Assembly (NCBI GenBank): GCA_902384675.1
Contig: CABMCT010000031.1
Span: 3,425 to 67,424, forward strand
Length of the DNA stretch: 64,000 nucleotides
Reading direction: 5' to 3'
Source: an uncultured archaeon
GTDB lineage: Archaea; EX4484-52; LFW-46
Shown: piece after piece, positions 4,756-63,629 of the stretch
Numbering within the stretch: position 1 is the stretch's first letter
How the letters are laid out: each line of letters begins with the position of its first letter
Notes under the pieces: generated by a model
The model's database searches: none
The model's input: only the letters and a program-made list of their open reading frames with translations
What the model was told of the DNA's origin: nothing
Position numbers and translations under genes: made by a program

Positions 4756-5223
4756 TTAGCAGGTTACTCCTGGTCCTGCCGTCGTCGGGTCGCATGTGAA
4801 TGAGATGTCATAGCCGCCGGGGGTTGCAAGCCTTATTATCTTGGTTTGAGCCACGCTCGGGAAGCTTACATTTGTATTTATTGTCAAAACCTGGTTTGGC
4901 GCAAGCGACTGGCCGCTAAAACCCGTGATTGTTGCAGCCTGGCCGTTCAAATAGTATGCTGTTCCTGCAGCTCCAAGGTCCACTGCCGTTGTTCCCGTGT
5001 TTCTAAGGGCGATCGAGATGTTTGAAAGCGAGTTATTCCACATGGAATCCGCTTTAAGGGATGTCTGGGCCTGCTGCTGTATTTGGTTGACTCCCTGGGT
5101 TCCTGTATCCTGGGCACCCTTTTGCAGACCGCCTACCCACATGTAGGCTAATCCCGCTGCTGCAACAGTCATCATGAGCAGCAAAACAATCGCCACAACC
5201 GCCGTTATTCCTTTTTTTCCCAT
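4756..5223 (-). CDS. Archaeal type IV pilin-like protein (class III signal peptide)
   Basis: MGKKGITAVVAIVLLLMMTVAAAGLAY: short charged N-terminus followed by a hydrophobic helix; Thr/Gly/Asn-rich body. Confidence 0.7.
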   Translation of the reverse strand: MGKKGITAVVAIVLLLMMTVAAAGLAYMWVGGLQKGAQDTGTQGVNQIQQQAQTSLKADSMWNNSLSNISIALRNTGTTAVDLGAAGTAYYLNGQAATITGFSGQSLAPNQVLTINTNVSFPSVAQTKIIRLATPGGYDISFTCDPTTAGPGVTC

Positions 5224-5324
5224 TTTTAATCAACTCCATTTTCATTGGATTAAAAAGCTTTCTGCGTTAGCAGAATGATGTATTTCACCTAATTTATTGA
5301 GATTTAACGCATGATTGAAAAATA

Positions 5325-5882
5325 TTAGCACCATGTTTGCGAGGATGAAGGTATATCGCATTTGTATGGGACCTCGGTTCCCAAATCTGTTACTATTTTT
5401 ATTGTTTTAGGATTGCCTACCGTAACAAAATTCTCCTGTGTGTTTACGGTGGTCACACCCCCTGGCGAAAGACCGCCATCCGGATTATAAGTGGGGATAG
5501 TTGTTACCGGGACCCCATTAGCATACAATGAAAATTTTGATACATCTGCAAATGCATATGAACCAGTATTTCTAAGTATAAATGAAATTTTTCCAGCGTC
5601 ATTCCACATCGAATCTATGTTTAGTTTTGCGCCGGTTCTCGCCTGATTTTTATTGAGGTCGTCTTGTGCATTGATCTGGATGCTATTTTGCGTATTCATA
5701 ATCCATTTGTAAGCTAATCCCGCTGCTGCAACCGTCATCATGAGCAGCAGGACAGTTGCAACGATAGCAGTTACACCTTTTTTCGGGACACGCCCGAAAA
5801 TCCGTTCGCTCCACTCTCGGCTTTCCAAGCTTAGCTTGGAAAAGCTTGAAAATCTATGATGATTTTCATGATTTCTTTCCAT
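5325..5882 (-). CDS. Pilin-like paralog; annotated N-terminal 33 aa are read through a dispersed-repeat copy, true start uncertain
   Basis: KKGVTAIVATVLLLMMTVAAAGLAY is identical in core to the 4756 gene; upstream MERNHENHHRFSSFSKLSLESREWSERIFGRVP is encoded by repeat-element DNA (5790-5882). Confidence 0.6.
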   Translation of the reverse strand: MERNHENHHRFSSFSKLSLESREWSERIFGRVPKKGVTAIVATVLLLMMTVAAAGLAYKWIMNTQNSIQINAQDDLNKNQARTGAKLNIDSMWNDAGKISFILRNTGSYAFADVSKFSLYANGVPVTTIPTYNPDGGLSPGGVTTVNTQENFVTVGNPKTIKIVTDLGTEVPYKCDIPSSSQTWC

Positions 5883-8093: not shown

Positions 8094-8624
8094 ATGCCAA
8101 AAATTTCTGTTCAAAAGCCAACGCGATTGATACACCACAATCCGGTCTGTCTTGTGACTTCAAAATCCGATACTGTTGAGAACGTATTTACAGCTTCGTG
8201 GGTCATGCCTGTTTCAAACAACCCGCCGATGGTTGCGCTCAGCGTTGCAAAATCTCGTTTCTCGTATGGGCTGATAAAGAAAAGCGGCGCGTTTGTGCTT
8301 AATATCCCGAACAAATCAATGCTAAAAGAAGTCATTTACTGCGGCAGCGTCTCAGGCAGGGACAAGAACAAATTCGCGGAAATGAAGTTCCAAAAAGAAA
8401 TGTCGCCCCATGCAAATATCCTGCTTTCAAAATGCATAGCATATCTTGAGTGCAAAGTTACCAAAGAAATCGAGGTGAGCGATCGCACTATTTTTATCGC
8501 GGAGATTATTGCAAACGGTGTCCAGAAAGGATTGTTTGAAAACGACAAATGGATTCTTTCGGAAAAATCGGAAATACTTCTTTATTTGGGCGACGGGAAA
8601 TACTGCACAGTTAGACCGGTTTGA
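8094..8624 (+). CDS. Flavin reductase-like FMN-binding protein
   Basis: VCLVTSKSDTVENVFTASWVMPVSNNPPMVALSV split-barrel flavin-reductase signature. Confidence 0.75.
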   Translation: MPKISVQKPTRLIHHNPVCLVTSKSDTVENVFTASWVMPVSNNPPMVALSVAKSRFSYGLIKKSGAFVLNIPNKSMLKEVIYCGSVSGRDKNKFAEMKFQKEMSPHANILLSKCIAYLECKVTKEIEVSDRTIFIAEIIANGVQKGLFENDKWILSEKSEILLYLGDGKYCTVRPV

Positions 8625-9324
8625 ACGCTTCTATAACGACAAGCTCTTCCCAATCAAACTTCTGCCGCGCAATTGCTTTTGCTGAGAAACCGATTTTTTT
8701 GAAGTGCAGCAGTGTTTTTTCATAGCGCGAAAGCGAGGATTCCAACAAGATTATTTTTCCGTGCGGATTCAGGAATTTTGGCGCGTCTTTTAAGAATCGC
8801 TCAATTATTTGCCTTCCGTCTTTTCCGCCATCAAGCGCGATGTTTTTGTAAATCGGTTCATCAGGCAGATACGGCGGATTGAAGACAATCAAATCAAATT
8901 TCCTCTCACTTGCGTTCGAGGCTTTTGAGGATTTTCCAGCTTGTCTGGAAATCATGCCTTGCGGCAAGCTTTTCAACCTTCGGTTGAAAAAGCCGAGAGT
9001 GTAACGAACGGACTCCCTATTCCTCAAAATTCCTTTTACATTCGCGAATAAATCGCTTTTGTGAAATTCTGCATTTTTTATTTTGTTCTGTTCGGCATTT
9101 TCTTTTGCGCACTTTACAGCTTCCGGGTTTATATCAACTGCAAGAACATGTTTCGCTTTCTTCGCTAAAACCAGCGCGATAATTCCGCTTCCTGTTCCGA
9201 TTTCCAAAACATTTTTCCCTTCTAAATTCAAATTCTGGAGCGCAGAAATCAGGAGAAATGTGTCTTCGGCGGGCTCGTAGACGTTTCCTGAAGTTTGGAT
9301 TTGAAAACCGTAAAGTCCGAGCAT
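8611..9324 (-). CDS. HemK/PrmC-like SAM-dependent methyltransferase (NPPY) with an in-frame ~37-aa repeat-derived insertion
   Basis: VLEIGTGSGIIAL motif I and LIVFNPPY motif IV. Segment ESVRYTLGFFNRRLKSLPQGMISRQAGKSSKASNASE between them is encoded by a dispersed-repeat copy (8915-9015). Confidence 0.8.
   Translation of the reverse strand: MLGLYGFQIQTSGNVYEPAEDTFLLISALQNLNLEGKNVLEIGTGSGIIALVLAKKAKHVLAVDINPEAVKCAKENAEQNKIKNAEFHKSDLFANVKGILRNRESVRYTLGFFNRRLKSLPQGMISRQAGKSSKASNASERKFDLIVFNPPYLPDEPIYKNIALDGGKDGRQIIERFLKDAPKFLNPHGKIILLESSLSRYEKTLLHFKKIGFSAKAIARQKFDWEELVVIEAFKPV
8915..9015. mobile_element. MITE-like dispersed hairpin repeat copy inside the hemK-like CDS
   Basis: 84 bp identical to 32819-32902; contains hairpins gcttttcaacc/ggttgaaaagc and ttccag/ctggaa. 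Confidence 0.7.
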
Positions 9325-9451
9325 ACAATCTCCTAGAATATCATGCCTTGCGGCAAGCTTTTCAATCCAGTAAATCCTTTCACTTCGTTCTAGGCTTTTT
9401 AGCCCAAAGTGAAAGGTGAATGGCTAAAAATGGATAATGATTGAAAATGAG

Positions 9452-9724
9452 CGAGCCTGGAGGGATCTTCAGCGGCTTCGGATAGTATTCTGTGACATCA
9501 ACTTCGTTGATGTCGCTCGTTTTTCTCTTTCTACCCGGATTTCAAACCATTCACCAACCGCTTTGGGTTGGAAAGCTTACCAATCGCAATTGGCATGATT
9601 TGTCTATCTCTTTTTGGAAAAAAGAGAAAGAAACCGTTTTTGAACCCCCGACCCCTGGCTTAGAAGGCTTACACGGAATATTTGCATAATCCACAGTGCT
9701 CTATCCAAGCTGAGCTACAGGCCC
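9452..9724 (-). tRNA. tRNA-Arg(UCU) with two non-canonical introns (in anticodon stem ~29/30, 25 nt; in T-loop ~59/60, ~172 nt); CCA not encoded
   Basis: Exon1 GGGCCTGTAGCTCAGCTTGGATAGAGCACTG (9724-9694); exon2 GCCTTCTAAGCCAGGGGTCGGGGGTTCAAA (9668-9639), anticodon loop CTTCTAA; exon3 TCCCTCCAGGCTCG (9465-9452). Exon3 completes the T-stem (GGGGG/CCCTC) and a 7-bp acceptor stem against GGGCCTG. Confidence 0.5.
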
Positions 9725-11313: not shown

Positions 11314-11646
11314 TTAGACAACTCGCGGCCCCTTGAAAAACCCGTTCTCCTTATGCTTCGTATTAGAAAGCGCATCTTCCTGCGAAAGGCACGGCTCAAC
11401 CAGGTCTTCGCGAAGGGCATTCTTAGTTTCAATCGGCTGGAAAGCAGGCTCTACGCCGTCTGTTTTTGCCTTATCCAGAGTACTAAACGCTGAAAGAATT
11501 TCCTTCATGTCCTTCTCAAACTTCTTTTTCTCGGCTTCGGAAAGCTGGAGCCTTGCGACTTTTGCGACCTTTTCAACAATCCGTTCACTCACTTCGTTCG
11601 TTCTCGGCTTTTGAGAACTCTCTTCTCTCAAAATCAATTCGGGCAT
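11314..11646 (-). CDS. gatC: Asp/Glu-tRNA amidotransferase subunit C
   Basis: VEKVAKVARLQLSEAEKKKFEKDMKEILSAFSTLDKAKTDGVEP, the GatC pattern. Confidence 0.75.
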   Translation of the reverse strand: MPELILREESSQKPRTNEVSERIVEKVAKVARLQLSEAEKKKFEKDMKEILSAFSTLDKAKTDGVEPAFQPIETKNALREDLVEPCLSQEDALSNTKHKENGFFKGPRVV

Positions 11647-15432: not shown

Positions 15433-15885
15433 ATAGCTGAGAGCGGCAGCGAAAGGATATTTGATTCTATCAATACGAAGTGATTCCTATGGTCGTAAGC
15501 ACAAAATATGTCGGGTACAGGGGCCTTTCGTACTGCATATATTGCGATATTCGCGACAGGGTGCAGAAGGCAGTGCGCAGGCTCATCAATCGCCTTAAAG
15601 GAAAGAAAGAGGAAAAAACACGGCAGAAAAAAGACCTCGGCTACAGGCGCTGGATGAAGACCGAATGGGGAGGAGGAGAAGTGTAGGCATTGAGAGGCAA
15701 TTGCATTGTACAGCCTACAATTCGACGACGAGTGAGGAGGAGAAGTATGATTTCTTTGTGCATAGCTTTATTGAGTACAAATCATATTTCGATTGGAGGC
15801 GAGGTATAATGGGATTGTACGTAGAGCTCATTGAAAACCATTGTACTGAGCCGATTGGTGGGGAAGTATAGATAATCATAAAGCT

Positions 15886-24520: not shown

Positions 24521-26737
24521 TTAGTATTTATACTTTTCTTCCTCCCACTCCTTCGCTTTCCCTTTCTCGTGCGCGGCTTTGGAGAAAACGCCGTGGTCGA
24601 CCTCAGGCACCAATATCATGCCTTTTAGCGGGTCAAGGCCATGCTCCCGTATTGCGTGATGCTGCGCTGCCCAGAGAGTCTCGTCAATCCCGTAGAATCT
24701 TGGCGGAAGGTCGTTTGGCTTTGTCTCTTTCTGCAGCTCGGCAACCATGTTCCTGAATGCAATGGCACTCTGGTCAATGCCAAAAGAGCCCATTTCCCAG
24801 ATAAAATACGCGTCCTTCATGCCCTTCTGGCGCAGGCTGAAAAGCCAGCCGTAGAGGACAAACATATCGTGCGACATGATATAAATCGGGGAATGGGCGC
24901 CTATTATCGGCCTTGGGGCGTTTATGTGCATCATTTTTATGTACTTGGCATCGCCATCCTTGAGGCTTGCTATATCCTGATCTACCCTTACAAAGTTTAC
25001 CGTGAGGTGCTCGAAGTCCATGGTGTAGCCGGTTATTTCGCCTTTATCCAGATGCTTGATAAGCGTGACATGATCATGCGCCGACATTACCCTTAATTCA
25101 CCCTCCTGGCCTTCGGGCGGCATTGCGGTTTCAATGAAAATCATCATTTTTGCGTCTTTTGTGTAGCTGTAGACTGATTCGTCTTTGAGGTGCTTGTATT
25201 CCGGGAATTCCGCAGCCATCCCCCATAAATCCCCTGAGACAAACAAATGGCCTTCGATGTATTTGCATGCGACTGCTGTGATGAGCTTTTTGACAAGGTC
25301 TTCTATAACTGTTTTATCTTCTTTACTATGCTCTTTATGTTTTTCGGAAGGTTCCACTTCTTCTCCAAGAAGCTCTTCTTCTTTAAAAATATTTTTGTCA
25401 TATTTTGATTTTCCTTTATCAGCGCATTTAATGATTATATCAGGGTCGTAGTCGCCTACGATATCCGTCCATAGAGGGTCGCGTGTCCAGTACATGAATT
25501 TTGCAATAACGCGATATGCAACTTGTTCCTCGCATTCGGAGCCTTTCGTCTTCCAGAAATCGAAAACTTTGTCAAAGTCGGTAGTCTTGAGGTAATACAA
25601 AACATGGTCATATATCTGATATATTTTGTATATTTTTGAAAGCTCGCCTAATGCATCTTCAAGCGTTTTTCCATTGTTCAATTCACGGATCATCAGTTCG
25701 TCCTTTTCACGTTCAACAGCGTAATCAAAAGACAGGTATTTTTCTGGCTTTCCGCTGTTGATTTCAGCGATTACTGCATTTGACGCAGAAGCTTCTCTGA
25801 AAAGCTGGTTATATTGCGGATTATTTCTTAGATTCTGGTCGACAGCTAACTCCAAGTCCTCTCCTTTAACTCCTCGGGATATCAGATATTTCCTAAGTTG
25901 TTCTCTTAATACATTCATTTGCGATTGGGCTTGAGTAAATATCTTTGTGTACCTTTCCAGCATGATTTTTTTAACCTTCTCATCCCATATTTTATCTCTG
26001 AGAGCGGTGTGTCTTTTTCCAGCCTCTTTTGCTCCGTCACTGAAGTTATCAAATGTTTCCATGAATGTTAGAACACCGACATCCCCGGAAAGCCCCATTA
26101 CATGAAAAAGCACTTTTGTAAACTTTGCTTTAAACCACTCGCGCATGCTTTGTCCTTTTGGCAACGTGATTTTTTTCCCTGTCTTTGGGTCTTTAAATTC
26201 GCCTTTATCAACAGCGTCGATCCATTGCCCTAAATTCGTTCCGTCAAACGAGTTCTGCTGTACCGGCGGCTCCTGATGCCCTACAGTAAACGTGACATGC
26301 GGCCTTATTCGCGAGGAAGTGTGGAAAAGAAAGAACTTTGAGCCTATGATTTCTTTTGATGAATAAGCTCCCTTGCGCAGGATTTCATGCATTTCCTTCC
26401 ATTCAAAGGCATTTGCTATGCAGAGGTCGACTTTTACAGGCAGGTGCAGGCCGACTTCCATTTTTTGGACGTCCTTGACGTGCATTATCAGTTCCTTGAC
26501 GTGGGGCTCGTACATTTCAGAAAGCGCTTCATAATCTATTTCGGTAAAATCAAAGCCAAGGCGCGCTGCTTTTACTATCTTTCTCGCCAAGCCCATGTTT
26601 ATCAGGCGCTCTTCTCCCTGTGCAACACTGGCAAAACCCGGGCTTGCTCCAAGAATGTAGCCGACAGGGTGGTTTTTGGCATCCCATCTGCCGTTTATGT
26701 GCGGCTGTTTCTTTTGTTCGTGGCCATGCTCGGACAT
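24521..26737 (-). CDS. Large hypothetical protein (738 aa from MSEHGHEQ; the ORF's upstream 69 codons look non-coding)
   Basis: ggaga SD 9 nt before ATG at 26737; no family recognised by eye. Confidence 0.6.
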   Translation of the reverse strand: MSEHGHEQKKQPHINGRWDAKNHPVGYILGASPGFASVAQGEERLINMGLARKIVKAARLGFDFTEIDYEALSEMYEPHVKELIMHVKDVQKMEVGLHLPVKVDLCIANAFEWKEMHEILRKGAYSSKEIIGSKFFLFHTSSRIRPHVTFTVGHQEPPVQQNSFDGTNLGQWIDAVDKGEFKDPKTGKKITLPKGQSMREWFKAKFTKVLFHVMGLSGDVGVLTFMETFDNFSDGAKEAGKRHTALRDKIWDEKVKKIMLERYTKIFTQAQSQMNVLREQLRKYLISRGVKGEDLELAVDQNLRNNPQYNQLFREASASNAVIAEINSGKPEKYLSFDYAVEREKDELMIRELNNGKTLEDALGELSKIYKIYQIYDHVLYYLKTTDFDKVFDFWKTKGSECEEQVAYRVIAKFMYWTRDPLWTDIVGDYDPDIIIKCADKGKSKYDKNIFKEEELLGEEVEPSEKHKEHSKEDKTVIEDLVKKLITAVACKYIEGHLFVSGDLWGMAAEFPEYKHLKDESVYSYTKDAKMMIFIETAMPPEGQEGELRVMSAHDHVTLIKHLDKGEITGYTMDFEHLTVNFVRVDQDIASLKDGDAKYIKMMHINAPRPIIGAHSPIYIMSHDMFVLYGWLFSLRQKGMKDAYFIWEMGSFGIDQSAIAFRNMVAELQKETKPNDLPPRFYGIDETLWAAQHHAIREHGLDPLKGMILVPEVDHGVFSKAAHEKGKAKEWEEEKYKY

Positions 26738-27275
26738 TTTTAAACATCTCCTTCTTCTTTGGTTTAAAAAGCTTGGAAACTGCATTTGCACCTTGGTATG
26801 CAAAGCTTGGAAATTCTTGCGAATTTCCATGAGTTTCCATGATTTCAAATCATTCCTCAATCTACTTGGATTTGAATCATCTCGTTCGCATAGCGAACTC
26901 GAAGCTTTTGGGAACCCTAAATCCCAAAAAGCTTGAAAGCGCAACTTATGCGCAAGCTTTCATGATGACAATCTATTGGTGAAGAGGGTATATAAAATCT
27001 GATATGATTTTTAAGCCGCGCTTCCACAACTTAAAATCCGTTCGCTATCGCTCTCGGCTTTTCAGACTTTGTCTGAAAAAGCGTGAAACTCGAATAAGCC
27101 GCAAGGAAGTTTCATGATTTTTATATACTCCTGTTTCCAATAATATTCAGTAATCTAATTTGGTGATATTATCGGAATTCTTGGCAAGCTCAAATCCAGT
27201 TTCGGTGGGGGGAAAAGCGATATTGACTCGAAAATAGACTCGGCATTCTCAAACCCCAACATTTCCGGAAAACTT

Positions 27276-28071: not shown

Positions 28072-29653
28072 ATGCGAGTTCCAAGCTTTCGAACCCAAAT
28101 TGGTTGCGAATGGTTCGAAATGGGAATAAACCTCACAATTTCTGAAGAACTAGCGGGATTAGATGAAATATCGGGCTTTTCGCCCAATACATAATCCAAA
28201 TGGCGAAAAGTCTGTTCGCTTGCTCTCAGCTTTACAGCCCAAAGCATCTGCGAATGGCTGTAAATCTTCTCACTTCGCCTTATTAACCATTAATAGCTCC
28301 GTTCGAGGCTCTTCATTCCAAAGAAGTTGGCGAATGAATGAAGATGGTGTGGAGAGTAAGCCCCCTTTTGTTTGGCCCGTCTCTGTCTCTGCTTAATTTG
28401 CAGGACTGGTGGGCGTTATCGCATTAGACTCCTCTCACTTTCGTGAAAGACGCGAATTGCTTCGCGCGCGTCGTTCGACTTGCACGCATGGACGGTCATG
28501 AAAATCTTTGCAGATTTTCAAGCTTTCCAAGTTCGTAAGAACCTGGAAATCGTTTCATCCTTATTCCGGAAACGTCGAATACTCTCATTCTTAACCGGAG
28601 GAGGTATCGTTTCTAATCCGTTGCCGCGCCTCCCGGCGCCCTGGTTTTCCAGGATTAAATGCCTTGCGGCATCCGTGGGGGGACTTTCCTCAATTCCTTA
28701 AAGCGCCATATCACAAGCAGGCGCTCTGAACGCCAACCTATGACAAAACACCCAAAAACCACAGCAACCCTTCCACACCACGCCATTATTACTTGCTCAA
28801 CTATTTAAATTTTAACTCCCCTTTCTTCTCCCAATTTTTCCAGATTTTGAGGCTGCCACGAATCCGAATCGCGCATGTCTTTCGTGTCTTTTGTTGTCTT
28901 TCGCCTGTCTTTCGCTTCGTTTTATAGGGCTTTGTTTACGCCAGTTGATATTCACGAGTGAATAAATTAGTAAAGAGACCTGAGTAGCGCAAATTCTTTT
29001 CAAAAATGGGTGCAAAAGTGTTTTACGTCGGATTTCTCAGGAGAAATGGTCGAAGAGCTGGCAGGAAAGTGGCTGAAAGTGCGGCTGTTGATAGAAGATG
29101 CACTACAGCTGAGCGAGAAAAGTCATGAAAATCTCTATGCAATGTGCAGATTTTCAAGCTTTTCAACCCAATGCAGTTGGCGAATGGTTGAAAATGAGAC
29201 TTTTGACCTTGTAAATCCTTTCGAGTGGCGCTCTAGGCCTTTCAATCTTCGGTTGAAAACTCAAGCTTGACCATAATCATATAGAAGATACAAGAAGGCA
29301 ATGGGCGAGATAGTGTGTGTGGCTAAGCCGGGAGGATATGTGCTGATAACCGTAGTCAATCCGCCTAAAGAGAGCGAATGTATGAAGGGATGAGAAAGGC
29401 AATCTGCGCTATAAAGCGAGCCTTTTTAACGATTCGCGAGGAAAGCCAGTATTTATGAAGCTTTACAGACGCTCGAGAGAAGAATATATGCGCGCCATGC
29501 AAGCCGCGGGCCTGGAAGTGCTTGAAGCAGTCGCGCCAACGCTTGAAGAGCTGGGGAAGTTGGGCCGCTGAAGGAGAAAGATGCGAAGAAGTTTGACAAA
29601 GACGCAATGAATGTGAGAGTTAATTTGGTGATTTTGGGAAGAAAATGCTTTAA

Positions 29654-31553: not shown

Positions 31554-32042
31554 CTATTCCCCGCCCTTTCCGCCACCGATAAACGCGATTGCCCCGACCA
31601 TTACCAGAAGTATCACAATCGTAATAACAGTATCCGAATCAATGCCTGCGCCAAAAGCCGACAGCCCTCCTGCAGAAAGGAAAATGAACAGTACAAGAAG
31701 TGCAAGCGCAATGCCGAGAGCAGCCTTGTGCTCTCCGAAAAGCTCCTCGGGCTTTAACCCGAACATTGCAAGGAACACAAGCAGTATCACAAGCCCTGCG
31801 GCAACAACGCCCATTGTGCCGAAAATTCTGGTGTAAAGAAACCCTCTTGCAATAAAGGCAGTAAGAAATGCAGCAACAATCGCGATAACTCCGTTTACCG
31901 CAGCGTCCTCGCTTATTGTTTTTTTGCTCTGCAAAAGCCCGTAGAATACTGCAAGGAATAAGAGCCACGGAAGCATGAAGTCATAGAACCCCAGATTGCT
32001 TAGGGTTGTAAGCATATTTGAAAAAACGGACATAGATATCAC
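31554..32042 (-). CDS. Paralogous small polytopic membrane protein (LGFYDFxLPWLLF family), copy 1
   Basis: 162 aa; N-terminus SNLGFYDFMLPWLLFLAVFYGLL. Confidence 0.6.
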   Translation of the reverse strand: MISMSVFSNMLTTLSNLGFYDFMLPWLLFLAVFYGLLQSKKTISEDAAVNGVIAIVAAFLTAFIARGFLYTRIFGTMGVVAAGLVILLVFLAMFGLKPEELFGEHKAALGIALALLVLFIFLSAGGLSAFGAGIDSDTVITIVILLVMVGAIAFIGGGKGGE

Positions 32043-32057: not shown

Positions 32058-32612
32058 TCATACACCGGGATGCGCAGGAGGTGGCTTTGGTGCCTCGGTT
32101 TCGCTTTTCCCCTCACCCTTCGTAGCAAACCCAATAACCGCGATGATGAATAAAAACACTAGCCCGATTGTTATGTCGTCGCTGCTTAATCCTAAGGAAA
32201 TGCTTCCTCCGGAAGCCTGGGAAAAAACCACTGCTGCGAACAATACCAGGGCGATGAAGATTATCGAGTACCATTCCTTGTTCTTTTCTGTAATTATTGT
32301 TTTATCAAACCCAAGAACCCCGATGAAAATTATCAATATAACCAGCGTTGCAAGTATCTGCGCCATCGAGCCGAAAAGAGTGCTGTAATAAGCCGAAATT
32401 CCGCCAACAGGAGTGAAATTGACTATGAAAAAAGCAAGAACAGCCGCGATTATTGCGTTTACCTGTTTGGCGCTTTTGTCTTTTTCATCACCGAAAATTG
32501 CCACCTTTGTCAGTACTCCAAGAATCACTGCAAAGAACAAAAGCCATGGCAATACGAAGTCGTAGAATCCAAGACGCTGCAAATTTCCCACAATACTTGT
32601 TAAATCGACCAT
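32058..32612 (-). CDS. Paralogous small polytopic membrane protein, copy 2
   Basis: First 30 aa MVDLTSIVGNLQRLGFYDFVLPWLLFFAVI are identical to copy 3; 110-bp near-identical DNA tract (32358-32467) shared with copy 3. Confidence 0.6.
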   Translation of the reverse strand: MVDLTSIVGNLQRLGFYDFVLPWLLFFAVILGVLTKVAIFGDEKDKSAKQVNAIIAAVLAFFIVNFTPVGGISAYYSTLFGSMAQILATLVILIIFIGVLGFDKTIITEKNKEWYSIIFIALVLFAAVVFSQASGGSISLGLSSDDITIGLVFLFIIAVIGFATKGEGKSETEAPKPPPAHPGV

Positions 32613-32818
32613 TTTTTATCATTCTCCATATTTATTGGATAAAAAAGCCTGGAAACCGCAGTTTCCATGATTTTTTATCATTCTCCATTTTTAACCATTC
32701 ACAATTATTATTGGGTTGAAAAGCTTGACACGAAGCCATCTCGATAAATCTCGAAGGCTTCCAGCTTGAAAAGCTGGAGGTGTCATGATTTTACTTGGAT
32801 AAAAATCATCTCGTTTTA

Positions 32819-32920
32819 CTCGAGGCTTTTGAGGATTTTCCAGCTTGTCTGGAAATCATGCCTTGCGGCAAGCTTTTCAACCTTCGGTTGAAAAAGCCGA
32901 GAGCGCAAGCGAACGGATTA
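32819..32920. mobile_element. MITE-like dispersed hairpin repeat copy (intergenic), twin of the copy in hemK-like gene
   Basis: 84 bp identical to 8915-8998. Confidence 0.7.
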
Positions 32921-32961: not shown

Positions 32962-33447
32962 TTATTCTTTCATTGCATACCACATTACGCCGAGCACAAA
33001 CAAAGCCACGAATATTGTTGTCATAGTATCGCTTCCGATGCTTGCTATTGCCCCGCCTGCCTGCGTGAAAACCAAAAATGCGAATATTACAAGCACGACG
33101 AAAATCAACGAGCCCCATTTGCTTTTTTCATCGCCGGTCAGGCTCTTTATATTTGTCCCAAGCGACCCCGCGAAAATCACGAGCACCAGAAGTATTGCAA
33201 TTATGGTTCCTGCCGAGCCGAAAAGAGTGCTGTAATAAGCCGAAATTCCGCCCACAGGAGTGAAATTAACTATGAAAAAAGCAAGAACAGCCGCGATTAT
33301 TGCGTTTACCTGCTTTGCGTTGCCGCCGAATATCTTTGCCTGATTAAGAAGCCCGAAAATAACTGCGAAGAACAAAAGCCAGGGAAGAACGAAATCATAA
33401 AAGCCCAAGCGCTGTAAATTACCTACAATTGAAGTCAGGTCGACCAT
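32962..33447 (-). CDS. Paralogous small polytopic membrane protein, copy 3
   Basis: 161 aa; see copy 2. Confidence 0.6.
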   Translation of the reverse strand: MVDLTSIVGNLQRLGFYDFVLPWLLFFAVIFGLLNQAKIFGGNAKQVNAIIAAVLAFFIVNFTPVGGISAYYSTLFGSAGTIIAILLVLVIFAGSLGTNIKSLTGDEKSKWGSLIFVVLVIFAFLVFTQAGGAIASIGSDTMTTIFVALFVLGVMWYAMKE

Positions 33448-55882: not shown

Positions 55883-56130
55883 TTTTTATCATTCTCCTTC
55901 TTCTTTAGATAAAAAAGCTTAAAATCCGTAGATTTTATGATTTTTAGCCATCTCCATTTTTAACCATTAGCCCCTTACTTGGGCTAAAAAGCTTGCCACG
56001 TTGTGGCAAGATTAATTCACCATTTACTATAAGAATAAAACCGTACGGGATTCTGGCTCAGGTTGTCTCTAATTAGATGCTGCTTATTCTTTATAAATCT
56101 AATCGGGAGCCAAAACCCCCTAAAATTTCT

Positions 56131-63439: not shown

Positions 63440-63629
63440 CTCGTTTCGCTCGCGCTCCACTCGAAGCTTTTGAGGATTTTGGGACATAGGGTTCCCGAAA
63501 GCTTGACGCAACGCGTCATGACACCCTTCCCTCAAAATTTGTTCTTTTTGCATGAGATTATAGAGGCGGGAAAATATAAAAACCATTGCCAATTAATAAA
63601 TATATAAACTTATAACACCGTTATATATT

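Follow-up and report, generated by a model that had tools for sequence, protein, structure and literature searches.

Probable double colonisation, in frame, of an archaeal Mtq2-type methyltransferase gene by small structured repeats

Introduction

Small palindromic sequences that settle inside genes are known from a few settings. In yeast mitochondria, the optional G+C-rich palindromic clusters of var1 are small mobile palindromes that sit in frame, are patchily distributed among strains and spread by conversion. Archaeal bulge-helix-bulge (BHB) introns occur in protein-coding genes such as cbf5. The ends of IS200/IS605-type elements and the repetitive extragenic palindromes (REPs) are handled as single strands, and some insertion sequences target REP palindromes themselves. 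Here we describe an in-frame insertion made of small structured repeats in a HemK2/Mtq2-type protein (glutamine) methyltransferase gene of an uncultured archaeon, together with the repeat family to which the insertion belongs. The gene lies in a stretch of 64,000 nucleotides, hereafter the window (assembly GCA_902384675.1, contig CABMCT010000031.1, positions 3,425 to 67,424 of the forward strand).

Two of the closest described systems come from a bacterium and from a haloarchaeon. Rickettsia palindromic elements (RPEs) are in-frame, translated insertions in unrelated housekeeping genes and are thought to be compatible with the folds of the proteins they enter (PMC10969869). In Haloquadratum walsbyi, the SMR-A elements of ~110 bp have inverted terminal repeats, are not flanked by a target duplication and insert in palindromes near the ends of other elements; how they move is unexplained (PMC3119063). 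[quoted passage not shown] The locus described here combines features of these systems: the methyltransferase gene was probably colonised twice by lineage-specific, small, structured and selfish repeats, which are predicted to be translated and to be tolerated by the enzyme.

Results

A methyltransferase with an intact core

The host gene (Table 1) encodes a protein identical to NCBI entry VVB60123.1 ('uncultured archaeon'), whose nearest named relatives come from Nanoarchaeota/DPANN metagenome-assembled genomes and whose database homologues bear the names HemK2/MTQ2. Pfam MTS matches the protein with an E value of 2.6e-22, the match being split in two stretches, and the match to the PDB sequence of human HEMK2/N6AMT1 is likewise split (residues 13-83 and 141-228). 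Motif I (LEIGTGSG) and the catalytic FNPPY are both present, as in class I S-adenosylmethionine (SAM) methyltransferases. In a Foldseek comparison, an AlphaFold2 model of the protein superposes on HEMK2-TRMT112 (template-modelling score ~0.8, target-normalised) and on Mtq2 of E. cuniculi (0.81). The model preserves the methyltransferase core, with predicted local distance difference test (pLDDT) values >90, and places the insert outside it, as a helix at residues 96-118 (pLDDT ~72-76) followed by disorder at residues 119-142 (~51-53). In an alignment of 22 orthologues, all 37 invariant columns are kept in the window protein, by construction, as it is one of the 22 rows; as every such column is kept, no conserved residue has been lost.

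More distant orthologues in the same alignment, P0017 and P0018, carry unrelated insertions of ~33 and 16 amino acids just past NPPY, so this enzyme tolerates insertions at more than one loop. A crude cysteine-motif screen of the small open reading frames (ORFs) in the window gave no candidate for the partner protein Trm112, a result that is uninformative for a 64-kb piece.

Two nested insertions at one codon boundary

Of 120 homologues, 71 showed both landmark motifs. From DIN to NPPY, 68 of them have a spacing of 40-45 residues and two (P0002 and P0003) one of 58, while the window protein has 85. Nearly all of the aligned orthologues have nothing between '...SDLFxNVKx' and 'KFDxIxFNPPY', where the window protein has 43 further residues; 16 of them are also found in P0002 and P0003, and the other 27 in the window alone. 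The insertion thus follows motif I and the SDLF strand, precedes DLIVFNPPY and contains no stop in the gene frame.

The DNA of the two cases of intermediate spacing, L001 and L002, has an insert of 48 nt (ATTTTGAGGAATAAGGAGTCCTCAAAAGCCTCGAACGTARGTGAGAGG) at the codon boundary used in the window. This unit folds into a 9-bp hairpin (TTTTGAGGA paired with TCCTCAAAA, with an 8-nt loop), hereafter H_A, followed by a small imperfect hairpin. The window has the 48-nt sequence of L001 and L002 with a further 81 nt inside it, flanked by TCC and absent from both relatives. The TCC at both sides leaves the edges of this younger composite uncertain by 3 nt; it lies at the exact junction of the loop and the 3' arm of H_A, in the opposite orientation. 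A covariance model built for the small hairpin, or tail, finds inverted, imperfect copies at either end of the gene copy (8898-8925 and 8989-9015). Candidate target-site duplications are limited to the TCC/TCC pair round the 81 nt, with A-rich microhomology round the 48 nt. As mRNA, the insert region has a predicted folding energy of -50.1 kcal/mol (z = -4.1). The predicted insert peptide, which includes SVRYTLGFFNRR..., had no genuine relatives in an exhaustive search of 1.84e9 cluster representatives, the two hits being tandem-repeat artefacts; a word-index peptide search also gave no candidates and is uninformative, the parent protein having been missed in the same way.

An earlier note, made from the letters of the window alone, had described a copy of one mobile hairpin repeat of ~100 bp between motif I and NPPY that reads through without a stop. 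The position and the open frame (ORF 8611-9324 is open throughout) are confirmed, as is the insert peptide it quoted, and the insert is indeed a multi-copy hairpin repeat in frame; it consists, however, of two nested elements, and comparison with orthologues raises the addition from the ~37 residues given there to 43 (129 nt).

A probable recent tract of copying or conversion shared with an intergenic sister

Part of the composite, extending into the 48-nt unit, is identical over 84 nt to an intergenic sister copy (Table 1), whose inverted tails (32803-32829 on the minus strand and 32893-32920 on the plus strand) form imperfect terminal inverted repeats. Left of position 8916 the two loci are unrelated. 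Right of the block a weaker similarity runs to ~9015 and 32920, with three substitutions and a 1-nt indel within ~15-16 nt, and the right edge is sharp (no differences in 84 nt versus 4 in the next 15; Fisher p = 3.6e-4). Because the block ends abruptly in a diverged stretch that includes an indel, it looks like a recent tract of copying or conversion between family members and is no proof of fresh transposition. The identity noted earlier, from which recent mobility had been drawn, is confirmed, with coordinates that were one base low at both loci (8915-8998 and 32819-32902).

The membrane-protein genes round the sister copy contain a tract of their own. The tandem paralogues at 32058-32612 and 32962-33447 (minus strand) share 106 nt at 96% identity (32367-32472 and 33214-33319) and have otherwise diverged, a pattern that points to gene conversion between repeats lying side by side. 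Positions 31554-32042 hold a third paralogue. The sharp edge of the 84-nt block and this paralogue tract together argue that copying between family members is ongoing.

In-frame units in gatC and Nob1

Two further genes in the window have been entered near their starts. The gatC gene of L046, a syntenic relative (GCA_040960625.1), begins ATGCCCGAATCAATCGTT..., without exactly the 18 codons that the window unit adds and with the start ATGCCCGAA conserved. Nob1 orthologues begin MQKEK-IHILD; the closest relative, P0122/L048, holds 54 of the 99 nt found in the window, as a 9-bp hairpin plus tail, and the further 45 nt of the window sit in the loop of that hairpin, a nesting like that in the methyltransferase gene. 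In all three genes the 5' arm of the unit is read ATT TTG AGR (Ile-Leu-Arg).

Each of the five coding insertion events (48, 81, 54, 54 and 45 nt) has a length divisible by three and lacks a stop; for length alone the chance of this is ~0.004. Only one of the three sense frames of the methyltransferase insert is open, namely the one used; the other two contain stops. The 1-nt indel also sets the gene copy of the 81-nt composite apart from its intergenic sister; the length would otherwise be 82.

A relaxed scan of the window, L001 and L002 for BHB motifs (3-nt bulges, 4-bp helix) found none that restores the frame together with the conserved KFD. A single candidate is conserved across the carriers, and the loss of 130 or 49 nt that it predicts would shift the frame. 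All candidates from the scan were weak and AU-rich and would either break the frame or remove KFD, and splicing was set aside.

A family of hairpin-plus-tail modules

The basic unit of the family is a hairpin of variable sequence, with a 3' arm that ends A-rich, followed by a conserved mini-hairpin of ~20 nt, the tail, of the form CCN-AGA-GC-GNRA-GC-GAA-NGG. The tail recurs in the window behind hairpins of many sequences, and the units occur with other small hairpin modules in mosaic combinations, mostly between genes. In an alignment of 16 tail copies (10 from the window and 6 from other contigs), every one of the 80 pair cells holds a standard pair, and double changes are seen at four of the five pairs (among them G-C to U-A and G-C to A-U). 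The observed covariation score was reached in 0 of 500 shuffles and no slid register came near it, with the caveats that the structure was derived from the same sequences and that some copies are related by descent. Readings of the tail as a K-turn, a C/D box, a sarcin-ricin motif or a signal-recognition-particle-like motif were dropped on inspection, as consensus positions do not fit. Rfam 15 gave no relevant match, either window-wide at the gathering threshold or locally at E values up to 10.

The covariance model finds ~20 tail copies in the window. Among the relatives, L046 has two in 20.7 kb and L048 has one in 20 kb, while L041 and L043 have a single copy apiece and L044 has none (scanned stretches of 7.6-21 kb each). 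With respect to local genes, 14 tails are sense and 5 antisense (one-sided p ~0.03). A motif scan of Joint Genome Institute (JGI) metagenomes found four contigs of matching G+C content that carry the tail motif. Across 185,579 species genomes the motif was hit 33 times, always singly, as often as chance would predict. On one JGI contig the CCAGCTTGTCTGG hairpin of the methyltransferase insert directly adjoins the tail, so the modules have been shuffled.

Leaders of the form AAGCTTTTT-stem-loop-stem stand before many genes (5223-5260, 26737-26774, 32613-32650, 55883-55994 and similar), with a GGAG/GGTGA ribosome-binding sequence in the loop and the start codon right behind the 3' arm. Degenerate copies of the AAGCTTTTT type that no gene follows are scattered in either orientation and look as though 5' leaders, too, were being copied around. 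The tail at 5798-5824 lies directly at the 5' end of a pilin-like gene (5325 to c. 5790, minus strand), one of two paralogues with a KKG-plus-hydrophobic N-terminus; as the ATG of its paralogue is gone and a GTG in the tail is the only in-frame candidate, the repeat may supply the start of this gene.

Evidence for spread in the window lineage and into structural RNAs

L046 is syntenic with the window over most of 1-20 kb, orthologous matches having 56-88% protein identity. The tRNA-spacer comparisons were made by hand alignment and checked with ARAGORN. Between the tRNA gene and the methyltransferase gene the window has 127 nt against 22 nt in L046 (22-24 nt across L046 and L002), and two spacers round the pilin-like paralogue genes measure 125 and 101 nt against 16 and 21 nt. 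The lengthened window spacers are filled with family modules. L046 also holds units not found in the window. Some units are old: one pair of orthologues has a tail right behind its stop codon, at 15433-15460 in the window and at 4652-4679 in L046, the two tails being 82% identical in a hand alignment.

The methyltransferase neighbourhood differs in a further respect. An extra gene of 176 amino acids (8094-8624, plus strand) lies between the methyltransferase and ABCE1 genes and overlaps the 3' end of the former by 14 nt. L001, L002 and L046 lack this extra gene, and there only 21-25 nt separate the methyltransferase gene from that of ABCE1. The database protein P0013 (231 amino acids; L046 10001-10129) has an N-terminal extension from a start called within the upstream tRNA gene.

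Structural RNA genes have been entered as well (Table 1). The tRNA-Arg(UCU) gene (9452-9724, minus strand) has, besides its long repeat-filled intron, a second intron of 25 nt at position 29/30 (9669-9693), and its three joined exons form a canonical cloverleaf; ARAGORN and Rfam missed the gene because of the two introns. The archaeal RNase P RNA (28347-28714, minus strand) scores 60.6 bits, below the Rfam gathering score of 84, and is for this reason absent from a default scan. One of its loops has 64 nt compared with 7 in the consensus, and further hairpin-plus-tail units lie just downstream of the RNA (28208-28312).

Table 1. Host gene, insertion and related repeat features in the window.
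Feature	Position	Strand	Evidence
HemK2/Mtq2-type protein (glutamine) methyltransferase gene, host of the insertion	8611..9324	-	ORF of 237 aa, Pfam MTS, named homologues, structure matches
Whole in-frame insertion, 129 nt, residues 99-141 (ILRNRE...SNASER)	8902..9030	-	alignment of 22 orthologues, residue-to-coordinate map, motif spacing
Older 48-nt unit, part 1: 5' arm TTTTGAGGA and loop ATAGGGAG of hairpin H_A	9013..9030	-	same site in L001 and L002; fold
Older 48-nt unit, part 2: 3' arm TCCTCAAAA and tail mini-hairpin GCCTCGAACGCAAGTGAGAGG	8902..8931	-	covariance model, 39.2 bits at 8898-8925
Younger 81-nt composite, antisense to the gene	8932..9012	+	hairpins 8932-8951, 8953-8971 and 8968-8993, tail 8989-9015 (38 bits)
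84-nt block identical to 32820-32903	8916..8999	.	exact match; none expected by chance (shuffled sequence)
Intergenic sister copy between two paralogous membrane-protein genes (-)	32803..32920	+	same three hairpins between inverted tails
Third copy of the 26-nt CATG-hairpin-AAGCTT module ATCATGCCTTGCGGCAAGCTTTTCAA	9340..9365	+	16 nt upstream of the methyltransferase start codon
Hairpin-plus-tail unit in the tRNA-to-methyltransferase spacer	9372..9430	-	covariance model and spacer comparison
54-nt unit in frame after gatC codon 4, adds ILREESSQKPRTNEVSER	11581..11634	-	model score 30.3 bits
99-nt in-frame insertion after Nob1 codon 5	63440..63538	-	54-nt unit common to P0122/L048 plus 45 nt within its loop
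T-loop intron of tRNA-Arg(UCU), 173 nt, occupied by family modules	9467..9639	-	orthologous intron 25 nt in L046, ~22 nt in L002
AAGCTT-hairpin-CATGA module in the RNase P RNA loop expansion	28495..28531	-	copies elsewhere in the window

Discussion

The intact catalytic core, the lack of a frame-restoring BHB, the lack of peptide relatives and the frame statistics together lead us to infer that the insert is read through and tolerated, which fits better than the two other outcomes raised in the earlier note, a fresh pseudogene and removal at the RNA level. We consider it improbable that the gene is a fresh pseudogene or encodes a crippled enzyme, in which the 81 nt disrupt the Trm112/SAM activation loop and have arrived too recently for decay to be visible. 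Such a state would be in keeping with the perfect 84-nt identity, which implies a recent event, with a site that touches Trm112 and SAM in Mtq2 (PMC3152332), and with the 81-nt part being known from one assembly. Yet the insert is open and a multiple of three in the single open frame, the indel relative to the intergenic copy gives it a length of 81 and not 82, each invariant column has its conserved residue, two more housekeeping genes are entered in frame alike, and in two other lineages the shorter insert has stayed in frame. Removal of the insert at the RNA level, as by the archaeal splicing endonuclease cutting at a BHB, would yield a protein of normal length and appears very improbable: the organism does splice unusual introns, two of them in the adjacent tRNA-Arg gene, and the insert is strongly structured, but the relaxed scan found no BHB with cuts that would restore the frame, and spliced elements need not be stop-free multiples of three, yet five of five are. 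An assembly artefact in which the 81 nt were mis-joined into the gene via the repeat is exceedingly improbable. The composite is known from one assembly only and shares a 16-nt stretch (TCCTCAAAAGCCTCGA) with the intergenic copy at one junction; the other junction, however, shares 3 nt, far under any assembler word size, the outcome is in frame and exactly at a hairpin loop junction, and a nested architecture is independently present in Nob1. The earlier note had also raised the possibility that the extra loop is ancestral protein sequence and the intergenic copy a gene fragment. Two relatives do share 16 residues, but these are encoded by a unit of the repeat, and family modules, not gene sequence, make up the intergenic copy.

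Several observations weigh against passive, selfish colonisation as a full account, even if it is the reading that we favour. The insertion site is the beta3-beta4 'activation loop', which in Mtq2-Trm112 complexes touches Trm112, as strand beta3 also does, and aids SAM binding and so is not inert (PMC3152332); tolerance is for that reason not self-evident, and 43 added residues at this site may well alter regulation or the dependence on a partner. There is no clear target-site duplication (ATT, GAAA and TCC were tried across the three genes and none fits all), and the 10 largest ORFs of the window include no transposase or other mobilising enzyme. The 48-nt unit is identical at 45-47 of 48 nt (94-98%) in the window, L001 and L002, against 70-75% in the flanking codons (51-58% at third positions), and the flanks diverge within 3-6 nt of the insert. 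Its three variable sites all lie in the predicted hairpin loop and tetraloop and are all nonsynonymous, a pattern that also fits a selected nucleic-acid function. Nor are the carriers a clade (0 of 300 neighbour-joining bootstraps, in a star-like tree): L002 is closest to the insert-free L046 (81% nucleotide identity) and L001 to the insert-free L044 (77%). Simple vertical inheritance of one selfish insertion, from which a carrier clade would be expected, fails on these bootstraps and pairwise identities. Recurrent targeted insertion, very short conversion tracts, or strong selection for nucleic-acid structure with repeated precise loss are possible explanations. It is possible, if on the unlikely side, that the 48-nt unit is no passive passenger and was either delivered in a site-specific, homing-like manner to one exact Mtq2 codon boundary in separate lineages or kept by selection on RNA or DNA structure or on a new function of the enlarged activation loop. 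If so, the family would represent a new class of mobile structured module that is recognised via its GA-loop/GNRA mini-hairpin and is able to settle in ORFs, tRNA introns and the RNase P RNA of small archaeal genomes. A related and unlikely account gives the unit a function in cis as nucleic acid, for instance as a protein-binding RNA, a processing signal or a promoter-proximal element, with the in-gene copy selected and the peptide a by-product. In its favour, the tail fold is maintained by compensatory changes, tails hardly differ in sequence between organisms whose methyltransferases are only ~60-75% identical, sense copies predominate, one tail is at an orthologous position in L046, and the in-gene unit is strongly conserved in three lineages, with differences in loops only, all nonsynonymous, as constraint on the nucleic acid and not the peptide would produce. 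Against this, copy number differs several-fold between close relatives, most positions are unconserved, both orientations occur, and a tRNA intron and RNase P RNA hold copies as well. Between the window and L048, conservation of the Nob1 unit does not exceed that of its flanks (85% versus 86%), the orthologous intergenic tail is just 82% identical, no Rfam family matches, and structured ends are typical also of selfish elements recognised as single strands.

Under the favoured account of selfish colonisation, a 48-nt unit would have landed in the beta3-beta4 loop in sense orientation. Later, in the window lineage, the 81-nt composite would have landed antisense at the loop/3'-arm junction of that unit's hairpin, and part of it would then have been copied or converted against the intergenic sister, leaving 84 identical bases. 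As each insertion has a length divisible by three and lies in the only open frame, the mRNA would be read through, and a catalytic domain that is otherwise intact would gain a basic excursion of 43 residues; the peptide is presumably made and tolerated, and frame-breaking insertions would have been removed by selection. How the repeats move is a guess: a hairpin-dependent, single-strand process of copy-and-paste or of template switching, accompanied by gene conversion, might serve, as proposed for REP/IS200-type elements.

If this account is right, in-frame colonisation of the kind known from RPEs now extends to a small archaeal genome, with three translation-related genes affected in 64 kb, and it brings with it nesting in hairpin loops and invasion of a tRNA intron and of RNase P RNA. 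The locus offers a natural experiment on the tolerance of compact proteins and RNAs to insertion and on the origin of new peptide segments from non-coding DNA. Because the insertion site is the loop by which Trm112 activates Mtq2, the consequence for release-factor methylation is directly testable. The family also raises the question of which machinery moves structured repeats in archaea, a question shared with the haloarchaeal SMR elements.

The comparison with described systems is closest for RPEs, which are likewise multi-copy, palindromic and in frame, with no break of the reading frame, and here three genes in 64 kb are affected. The present host, however, is an archaeon with DPANN-like relatives, the units measure 48-54 nt against ~100-150 bp for RPEs, and there is no sequence relationship; the units are moreover modular, nested, provided with a GA-loop/GNRA mini-hairpin and mostly intergenic. 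The var1 clusters of yeast mitochondria offer a parallel in behaviour but are organellar and share neither sequence nor host relationship with the family. BHB introns resemble the insert as extra structured segments in archaeal ORFs, and this organism is rich in non-canonical tRNA introns; unlike them, the insert has no BHB at in-frame boundaries and keeps the frame and an open reading, which an intron does not need.

Other likenesses concern architecture. With the single-strand IS200/IS605 and REP elements the family shares structured, covarying ends, the lack of a clear target duplication and, in its 14:5 orientation, a sense bias. It resembles the REPs and bacterial interspersed mosaic elements (BIMEs) of enterobacteria in that short structured palindromes are mosaicked between genes, with stems kept by compensatory change; REPs, however, very rarely lie in coding sequence, the 16 aligned tails contain no invariant tetranucleotide like the GTAG or CGTC tag of REPs (PMC3733652), and no RAYT was found among the 10 largest ORFs of the window. 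Like MITEs, the composites are small, non-coding and multi-copy, have inverted ends (two tails) and are present or absent between relatives; unlike MITEs, they have no clear target-site duplication and no sign of a parent transposon among the 10 largest ORFs of the window, and their composition varies by module shuffling, with no fixed consensus. The SMR-A and PATE elements, compared here by description, are archaeal too, and their nesting recalls the 81-nt and 45-nt composites, each of which sits inside the hairpin of another unit; the targets of SMR-A are transposons of the IS605 type as well as PATEs and not in-gene units, and in-frame coding insertions have not been described for it. By sequence or by defining tags, the family appears to stand outside RPEs, REP/BIME and SMR-A: it behaves like RPEs, and it is built like REP/BIME with the nesting of SMR-A/PATE.

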